A stretch of 64,000 bases of DNA from positions 8,308,001-8,372,000 of the forward strand of contig CM102284.1 in NCBI GenBank assembly GCA_046563655.1, read 5' to 3'. This document shows positions 20,749 through 22,719 of the stretch, one piece after another. The first letter of the stretch is position 1, and the number at the start of each line of letters is the position of its first letter. Source of the stretch: Yuukianura sp. NJ FZ-2021 (lineage: Eukaryota). A model generated the notes under the pieces. It saw only the letters and a list, made by a program, of their open reading frames with translations, was not told the origin of the DNA and did not search any database. A program made the translations under genes and the position numbers.

Positions 20749-20819
20749 TTAGCAACTGCAGCCAGACTCATTCTCATGTGCATCCGGATGCTGCGACACT
20801 TGCACTTTCAAATCCACTG
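20749..20819 (-). CDS. Rab6: Alternative terminal coding exon of Rab6 ((T)VDLKVQVSQHPDAHENESGCSC*)
   Basis: Acceptor ctttgcag in the correct phase 1 for the exon-6 donor (GAC A|gtaag). 23 open codons ending in CxC-stop. Confidence 0.75.
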
Positions 20820-21410
20820 CTGCAAAGTTAAATTAACCAATTAATCAACACAACTAATTAACACTTCCAAACATAAGTTATTATTTGTGTTATCAACTAG
20901 TAATTGCACGGCCTTTCCATAAGTTAAATAACCAAAAAAATTACGAATTACTTAAAACACTTTCGAAATCATAAGCTTTTTCAGTTTCCGAAAAAAAAAA
21001 TTAGTTTTAACACTAATTTACAAACCCGCCCCAAACTAAATTTACTTTTAACTGTTCTTTCCAAGGCACTCCACATGCAAGGCACGCCGTTTCCAAATTT
21101 CCGAATTTTACGAAATTTTGAATTACCAATTTCGAAATTTTGAATTAGGGTCACTACACAAGGCACTAAGTTTTAAAAGGTCAAAGGTCATTAAGTAGAG
21201 GAGAGGAGTGGGTGATTGTAGCTCTTGGAGTTAGTGATGATGAGGATCTTCTAAAATTGTGTGCAGATCGTGATTGGAACTTATTAGCGTTAAAGTGTTA
21301 ATTTAGGTTTCCAATTTCCGGTTTTTAACAGTATTTTCCGTAAACGGGAAGTTTTTTGGTCTGTTTCTTGAGCTTTTGTTTTTTGAAGCTCTCTCATCAA
21401 AGTGAGCGTC

Positions 21411-22719
21411 TTAACATGCACATCCGCCTTCAGGTTTGTTTTCATTAGGCGTATCCTTCAAAATTACTTCTTGCACTGAATAAAACAAGGAAACAAAAGA
21501 AAAAGCAAATAAATAACACAAAAATCAAGAATTTAACACAAAAGTTGTGTTTTGTAGCTGAAATGCGTTTGGACGAAACAGAGACACAACAATGAAAGAC
21601 AAGAGTACAGAAAATATGAGAACTGCGGAAGTATTTTAGGAAATGCAAAATGGAAGCCATGCTGATTGAAAAAGTAAGAAAACATGGAACTTACTGTCCT
21701 CAGTTGTTTTGTTTTCTGAGGAGTCCATTCCTGGTAAGGCTGCGGCGACTCGGCGGAATAGCTGCAAAAAAACAATTAATTAAAGTTAAGTTAAAAATTA
21801 AGTTGAAAATTCATTCTTGAATTATTTTGACTTACCTGCTTCACGTTGTATCCAGCCTTCGCACTTGTTTCAATGAACATGACGTTCAACTCTTTGGCTT
21901 TCCGCTCTCCCTCTTCTGTTGAGACCTGTCAAATATCAATCCAAGTTAAATGATAAGTTAGCTCCAACTTCATCGTGAAACTGAATTTGTGCAATTCTGC
22001 GTGAAAGTGGAGCTTACTTGGCGCTTATCAGATAAATCCGTTTTATTGCCGACGAGCATGATGATGACGTCGCTTCCACGCTCTGTCCTCACATCATCGA
22101 TCCACTTGGAGGTTTGATGGAATGAATTGGCATCTGCAGAGCAAAACACAAACAAGAATCGTGACTTGATTGACCTAAATTCTCAGATCAAAACCTCCCA
22201 CACGAATTGTTCAGTTGTCTTACTGGTGATGTCGTAGACGACAACGGCCACAGTGGAATCCCTGATGTACGATGGAATTAAACTGCGGAAACGCTCTTGG
22301 CCAGCGGTGTCCCACAGTTGGAGGCGGACAGTTCTGTCTTCAAGGTACATTGTCTTCGACAAGAAGTCAATTCCTATTGTTGCCTAAAATTTAACAATAA
22401 ACTGTCAATCCTCTATCTGATAACATCCAAGTAATTTAGCAGAAAAGCATGAATGGCTGACCTGGTAGGTGTTGTCGAAGCTGTCGTACATGAAACGTGT
22501 TATCAACGATGTTTTCCCAACTAAAAACACAAAAACAACCGATTATTCCAAGCTATTCAAGCAATTCTTATCTAAAGAAACTTTGAGATCCCAGTATCTT
22601 GATTCTGGAATCCAGAATACTGGCAGCATCGTTGTCTGGCAGCACTTACCGCTTTGCTCTCCGAGGAAAACGAGCTTGAACTTCCGCAGTGGATTACCGA
22701 AATCTCCGGACGTAGACAT
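21411..22719 (-). CDS. Rab6: Rab6 small GTPase (isoform with proximal last exon, ...KPEGGCAC*)
   Basis: [84 protein letters not shown] and [12 protein letters not shown]. Seven exons in phase. Confidence 0.97.

Follow-up and report, generated by a model that had tools for sequence, protein, structure and literature searches.

In the genome of Yuukianura sp. NJ FZ-2021, a single Rab6 donor on the minus strand of the window (the whole 64,000-nt stretch of contig CM102284.1 analyzed here) can be joined to either of two terminal exons, which continue the frame to separate stop codons. We consider it likely that this one gene yields two Rab6 isoforms through the choice of its last 3′ splice site and, as judged from the genomic sequence, both last exons are very probably used. 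The kind of event is itself known, and the new element in this locus is its U2-converted form.

Two terminal exons behind one Rab6 donor

The core shared by both isoforms comprises 562 nt in six GT-AG exons and ends with ACA/GTAAGTTCC, in phase 1. The features of the gene, in window coordinates, are:

22650–22719, minus strand: Rab6 coding exon 1, with the ATG at 22719
22462–22520, minus strand: exon 2, joined in the coordinate-built ORF
22224–22383, minus strand: exon 3, switch region, Pfam Ras; single copy, without a duplicated internal exon
22018–22133, minus strand: exon 4, joined in the coordinate-built ORF
21836–21925, minus strand: exon 5, joined in the coordinate-built ORF
21695–21761, minus strand: exon 6, common to both isoforms; it completes the G domain and encodes the beginning of the hypervariable domain
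21686–21694, minus strand: shared phase-1 donor, U2-type GTAAGTTCC, with the exon/intron border between 21695 and 21694; most other animals sampled have the U12-type GTATCCTT here
21411–21475, minus strand: proximal last exon, type A tail (QEVIL...GGCAC-stop), after a 219-nt intron; pyrimidine-rich acceptor (17/20)
20749–20819, minus strand: distal last exon, type B tail (VDLKV...SGCSC-stop), after an 875-nt intron; NAGNAG acceptor (20819/20816) with a weaker tract (12/20 pyrimidines)

The deduced core is identical to Periplaneta Rab6 (P0098) in 170/170 residues and to frog RAB6A (P0068) in 162/170, and its G domain has a Pfam Ras match. A search of the genome (98.7 Mb in 22 contigs) with exon 3 produced 21 matches, the next best after Rab6 being 54% identical, and revealed no second Rab6 gene in these contigs. 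Exon 3 matched once at the Rab6 locus, with no duplicated internal exon of the RAB6A/A′ type in the switch II region. The sequence-only reading had contrasted this gene with the internal swap of vertebrate RAB6A/A′, and the contrast holds: exon 3 is single copy here and it is the terminal exons that differ. Exon 3 is unbroken in the window (22224–22383). Among the loci compared below, a GT donor follows the EDRT codons in L027, L035, L038, and L061, and the exon of L073 is split elsewhere, near 22312 in window coordinates, pointing to intron loss and gain. Five tandem Rab-exon matches from the same search (L009, L012, L018, L020, and L021) lie within 12 kb (G000:C4:3253933-3265753), constituting a small-GTPase gene cluster.

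Joining the core by coordinates to positions 21475–21411 generated a 208-aa Rab6 ending in GGCAC, and joining it to positions 20819–20749 generated a 210-aa Rab6 ending in SGCSC; neither product contained an internal stop and both finish as G-C-x-C-stop. This bears out the earlier proposal of two terminal exons in phase, both ending in CxC, except that the proximal exon starts at 21475, one base off the 21476 given then. An alternative AG at 20816 in the distal acceptor would lead to a product of 209 aa; homologous proteins read T-V-D-L and, therefore, 20819 is preferred. It had also been proposed that the entire hypervariable domain is swapped: the last 21–23 residues do differ between isoforms, but around 10 residues following the G domain come from the shared exon 6.

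Two other AGs in intron 6 (21622 and 21557) were rejected as acceptors because the resulting frames lack a CxC, and read-through of the intron was rejected as a Rab tail because it ends in C-I-S-stop, which is not a Rab motif. These two tails were the only YAG-led frames of 15–30 codons ending in CxC-stop in both strands of the 64-kb window. In 3,000 order-2 Markov simulations of the 961-nt region, such a frame appeared in 0.6% of the cases and a G-C-x-C ending in none (0/3,000).

Elsewhere in the window, a unit of about 55 nt is repeated around four times within an intron of a cullin gene (24440–24640), and the minus strand of positions 13344–17716 carries long acidic, proline-rich ORFs. All matches in an Atlas search with a neighboring ORF were below 0.8 and uninformative; one stretch of the ORFs in 13344–17716 may resemble BOD1-like proteins.

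Conservation of the exon pair and of its tail types

A degenerate pattern for exon 6 plus its acceptor retrieved 52 metagenome loci, 36 of them with at least 1 kb of downstream sequence; the tail-exon counts for L038 and L058 cover 5 kb downstream. At least two tail exons were present in six loci (L073, L041, L044, L027, L061, and L037). L073, L041, and L044 show the same pair as the window, proximal then distal, the distal exon of L044 being cut by the contig end, and L027 contains two tail exons behind exon 6. L061 has three CxC tail exons served by one U12 donor, at approximately +1148, +3205, and +4941 after exon 6, and all three have a TTCCTTGAC branch site that is a perfect match; its tail is not of an arthropod type, and tail multiplication may thus extend beyond arthropods. 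L037 carries two proximal-type copies behind a U2 donor, at +364 and +836 after exon 6, the first of them slightly shorter, which is a recent further duplication. Three of the 20 loci with at least 3 kb downstream contained at least two tails, with one tail in 16 loci and none in the remaining one, indicating that the two-tail layout is not universal.

Locus L073 is syntenic with the window, with a convergent PIG-A-like gene alongside. In a blastn comparison, the distal exon was 84.6% identical to that of L073 over 78 nt (E 1.5e-18) and the flanks did not align, so that the exon stands as an island of conservation. Over its 22 codons, the comparison with L073 showed 14 codons without change, five with synonymous and three with non-synonymous changes (pS 0.52, pN 0.057; Fisher p 2e-4), and that with L041 showed 5, 13, and 4, respectively (pS 1.05, pN 0.114); values of pN were similar for the proximal exon (0.057–0.114). 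The mostly synonymous change and low pN indicate that both last exons are under purifying selection at the protein level. Conservation of the distal exon in relatives, put forward earlier as a test, is thus evident from the synonymous excess and from the same exon order in L073, L041, and L044.

The same tails were found in protein records. Among 129 proteins, which are the best matches of searches aimed at such tails and not a census, the distal-type junction occurred in 18 and the proximal-type junction in 17. Three full-length records (P0010–P0012) are from contigs of 1.0–1.1 kb and cross the junction without an intron, and are therefore transcript-like. Named records with the distal type are from Colias, Anopheles farauti, Zootermopsis (X2), Polistes (X2), Acromyrmex, and Artemia (X2); additionally, both tail types are recorded for Colias (P0014 and P0016), their contigs being equal in length, and the Anopheles christyi model P0093 has both tails strung in order. 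These junctions in insects and Artemia show that the two-tail layout spans insects and crustaceans, and that it exists already among the database predictions of automatic annotation. The two last exons of the window are orthologous to these insect and brine shrimp tail types, and the type of its tails marks the organism as an arthropod. Nevertheless, a literature search covering listings and the beginnings of abstracts, with subscription journals outside its scope, retrieved no paper describing alternative Rab6 tails; passages of PMC7105135 and PMC4342991 mention Rab6 without isoforms.

The features of each tail type (T-V-D-L vs. M-x-E-V-x-L-K-D) are distinct across insects and crustaceans. 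Against shuffled sequences, the distal tail of the window scored z 6.0–6.5 with insect type B and 1.2–2.3 with type A, and the two tails of the window scored z 2.1–2.3 with each other and 3.1 and 5.1 with the frog tail. With this weak direct similarity, a duplication origin rests on the resemblance of both tails to that of frog; origin of the pair by exon duplication is likely, if weakly shown. The ancestral last exon would have been duplicated in tandem before the split of insects and crustaceans.

Could the distal exon have arisen as a frame by chance, or be a remnant that is no longer used? Its weaker pyrimidine tract would fit such a reading, and the case for its use in this organism is made from DNA. 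However, the absence of G-C-x-C endings from the simulations, the synonymous excess, the exon order kept in three other loci, and the presence of the junction in other species leave this reading with a very slim chance.

Intron class and 3′ ends of the transcripts

The donor of intron 6 in the window is of the major type (GTAAGT, in GTAAGTTCC) and differs from the U12 donor pattern RTATCCTT. The donors of the 52 loci were U12 (GTATCCT or GTATCTT) in 27 cases, which are redundant and correspond to 12 distinct exon-6 peptides, and U2-like in 14; the other 11 were unclassified (eight without an intron, two cut, and one with another donor). Branch sites were distributed accordingly: the match to TTCCTTRAC was 8–9/9 at all 10 scored acceptors of U12-donor loci, and 5–7/9 at all 13 acceptors of U2-donor loci, including the two from the window (7/9 and 6/9), neither of which has a U12 branch site nearby. 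The sequence TTCCTTGTT preceding the proximal acceptor was considered as a U12 remnant and rejected, because it is absent from L073 and L041 and its 7/9 match is within the U2 range.

Both tails are behind a U2 donor in the window, L073, and L041, and behind a U12 donor in L044, where each tail has a CCTTRAC site. Additionally, S-I-L, the in-frame translation of a U12 donor, is present in read-through models from mosquito, ants, a beetle, and fishes. Passages of PMC10639083 hold that intron conversion runs from minor to major, and the direction from U12 to U2 is drawn here from this general rule and the distribution among loci rather than from a tree. Very probably, then, Rab6 intron 6 was converted from U12 to U2 in this lineage. 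A two-tailed gene with a U2 donor, against U12 donors in 27/52 loci, suggests that the alternative choice survived the conversion. We envisage that both branch sites decayed after the donor changed and that the choice persisted; the major spliceosome would then use by default the nearer, more pyrimidine-rich acceptor and would pass over it to the distal acceptor in a regulated manner, probably according to tissue or stage. As a separate observation, the unspliced records P0003 and P0004 have an insect-type exon-6 end (ENKPPED) with a U2 read-through (S-K-F), which hints at an independent U12-to-U2 conversion in another lineage.

The genome contains intact U12 (84 bits) and U6atac (53.8 bits) snRNA genes (L075 and L076), both above the cut-off; a U11 search gave no match in the genome, and its search control was likewise without any match. 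Genome-wide patterns for short U12-consensus introns revealed no excess (0 vs. 6 in the control, and 3 vs. 13), and none of the three matches resembled an intron in a gene; this is suggestive only, but the minor introns of this lineage may be few. Two other loci (L078 and L079, at G000:C3:3353375 and 3358275) are near-identical, on opposite strands and 5 kb apart, as in an inverted duplication or the ends of an element.

At the 3′ ends, neither AATAAA nor ATTAAA occurs in the window from the proximal stop to the distal acceptor (591 nt), an interval in which one weak AGTAAA is present at 21046. Two elements lie after the distal exon:

20466–20500, minus strand: conserved 35-nt 3′UTR element with two TGTA motifs, common to the window and L073
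20442–20449, minus strand: putative poly(A) signal, AATATA/TATAAA, for which the corresponding position of L073 reads AATAAA

The first is a probable upstream element for distal polyadenylation and, together with the hexamer, places the distal 3′ end probably near 20430. As no AATAAA or ATTAAA follows the proximal stop in this interval, polyadenylation may take place at the same site in both isoforms. There would then be alternative acceptors in one terminal region, with a single poly(A) site near 20430 and a proximal isoform whose 3′UTR, of about 1 kb, contains the distal exon. This arrangement, which we hold to be plausible although somewhat short of probable, agrees with the lack of AATAAA and ATTAAA from the 591 nt of the window as well as from 875 nt of L041, and with the location of the conserved TGTA element plus hexamer solely after the distal exon. 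Conversely, the interval of the window does hold the AGTAAA, the corresponding interval has an ATTAAA in L073 and two AATAAA in L044, and variant hexamers are used by AT-rich animals. A shared poly(A) site would alter the class of the event, not the proteins. The 3′UTRs differ under either model, but the full swap proposed by the sequence-only reading was an overstatement in view of the 591 nt free of AATAAA and ATTAAA. For the convergent PIG-A-like gene, an AATAAA is located on the plus strand at 20476 (within 20347–20500), and the 3′UTR of that gene therefore probably overlaps the distal Rab6 3′UTR by some tens of bases.

Predicted roles of the two tails and related isoform systems

Rabs ending in CxC are doubly geranylgeranylated and, consequently, both isoforms should be, and both would be bound to the Golgi. 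Aligned to the human Rab6 tail (PDB 3bbp and 4dkx), the swap starts exactly at the aliphatic segment corresponding to human I-D-I-K-L, whose pattern is matched by the distal V-D-L-K-V; we infer which residues of the type A tail form the CIM. Both tails retain a CIM-like aliphatic stretch, four acidic residues, and the CxC, and neither has a polybasic patch (two and one K+R). Replacement of the CIM segment (Q-E-V-I-L vs. V-D-L-K-V) could change prenylation, activation by Ric1-Rgp1, or the binding of effectors that read the tail, besides the difference in 3′UTR.

According to PMC11618376, Rgp1 contacts the tail of Rab6 in yeast, CIM included, this CIM region forming a strand, and mutation of two CIM isoleucines lowers GEF exchange about two-fold; a Rab5 tail on Rab6 causes mislocalization to the ER, although the cells still grow, and the Rab6 tail may not be a specificity factor in yeast. 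As the likeliest function, to which we give an even chance, the swap of the CIM segment, bound by the prenylation escort and by the Ric1-Rgp1 activator, would tune the Golgi loading of Rab6 rather than redirect it. The earlier proposal was a different destination for each isoform, such as the Golgi vs. endosomes or post-Golgi carriers; the importance of the hypervariable domain for yeast Rab6 localization (passages of PMC11618376) and the long separate conservation of two tail types would support it, but it appears improbable, because the G domain read by the GEF domain is identical in both isoforms, the wrong tail in yeast gave ER mislocalization and not retargeting (same passages), and neither tail has a polybasic patch. 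Alternatively, both exons could be used with interchangeable proteins, the pair being kept for the 3′UTR (mRNA level, stability, or localization) and the tails needing only to stay prenylatable. The features retained by both tails, the yeast growth supported by a foreign tail (PMC11618376), and 3′UTRs that must differ under either poly(A) model are in line with this, whereas the distinctness of tail types across insects and crustaceans (distal tail with type B vs. type A, above) and the low pN along the whole distal tail argue against it, and we regard it as rather unlikely.

Returning to the choice between two prenylated tails, we advance, as a tentative and speculative view, that, in many protostomes, an ancient switch among two or three Rab6 tails rewires the segment bound by GEF and escort, producing tissue-specific Golgi pools of Rab6; splicing would thus do what the RAB6A/RAB6B paralogs do in vertebrates, and this genome would be a natural experiment illustrating that the switch outlives the role of the minor spliceosome at that intron, with one donor change converting both acceptors together. 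Rab6 is a central Golgi regulator that is treated as one protein in invertebrates and, if both tails are expressed together, experiments that knock down and rescue Rab6 in shrimp and insects have been reading a mixture. With identical G domains, the isoforms offer a clean natural test of the part played by the hypervariable tail in Rab activation and location, which is a long-argued question. Likewise, the occurrence of this event in both a U2 and a U12 form permits a direct test of whether splicing by the minor spliceosome is regulatory or incidental.

In the alternative tails of KRAS4A/4B and CDC42 the lipid signal itself changes; unlike them, both Rab6 tails keep the CxC and it is the upstream CIM region that changes. 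Vertebrate RAB6A and RAB6A′, listed in PMC9741552, are likewise two isoforms from one Rab6 gene by the exchange of related exons, and differ in three residues (PMC3578815). Their swap is, however, inside the G domain (PDB 3bbp and 4dkx) and leaves the tail identical, whereas in the window the isoforms have the same G domain and exchange the prenylated tail. C-terminal substitutions of tandem duplicated exons make up 77/236 human events and include RAB28 and RAB37 in a table of PMC9741552, where the terminal exon of a small GTPase is also exchanged. The minor-to-major conversions treated in passages of PMC10639083 and PMC2831892, whose main-text passages do not name Rab6, also kept intron position and phase with a change of donor class; compared to them, one converted donor serves here two acceptors, each formerly with a U12 branch site (cf. 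L044). The Rab6 isoforms that automatic annotation predicts for arthropods (Zootermopsis X2/X7, Polistes X2/X4, Artemia X2, Colias, and Anopheles) share the same two tail types at the same junction, but the read-through S-I-L of annotated insect Rab6 denotes a U12 donor, whereas Rab6 in the window has a U2 donor and lacks a U12 branch site.
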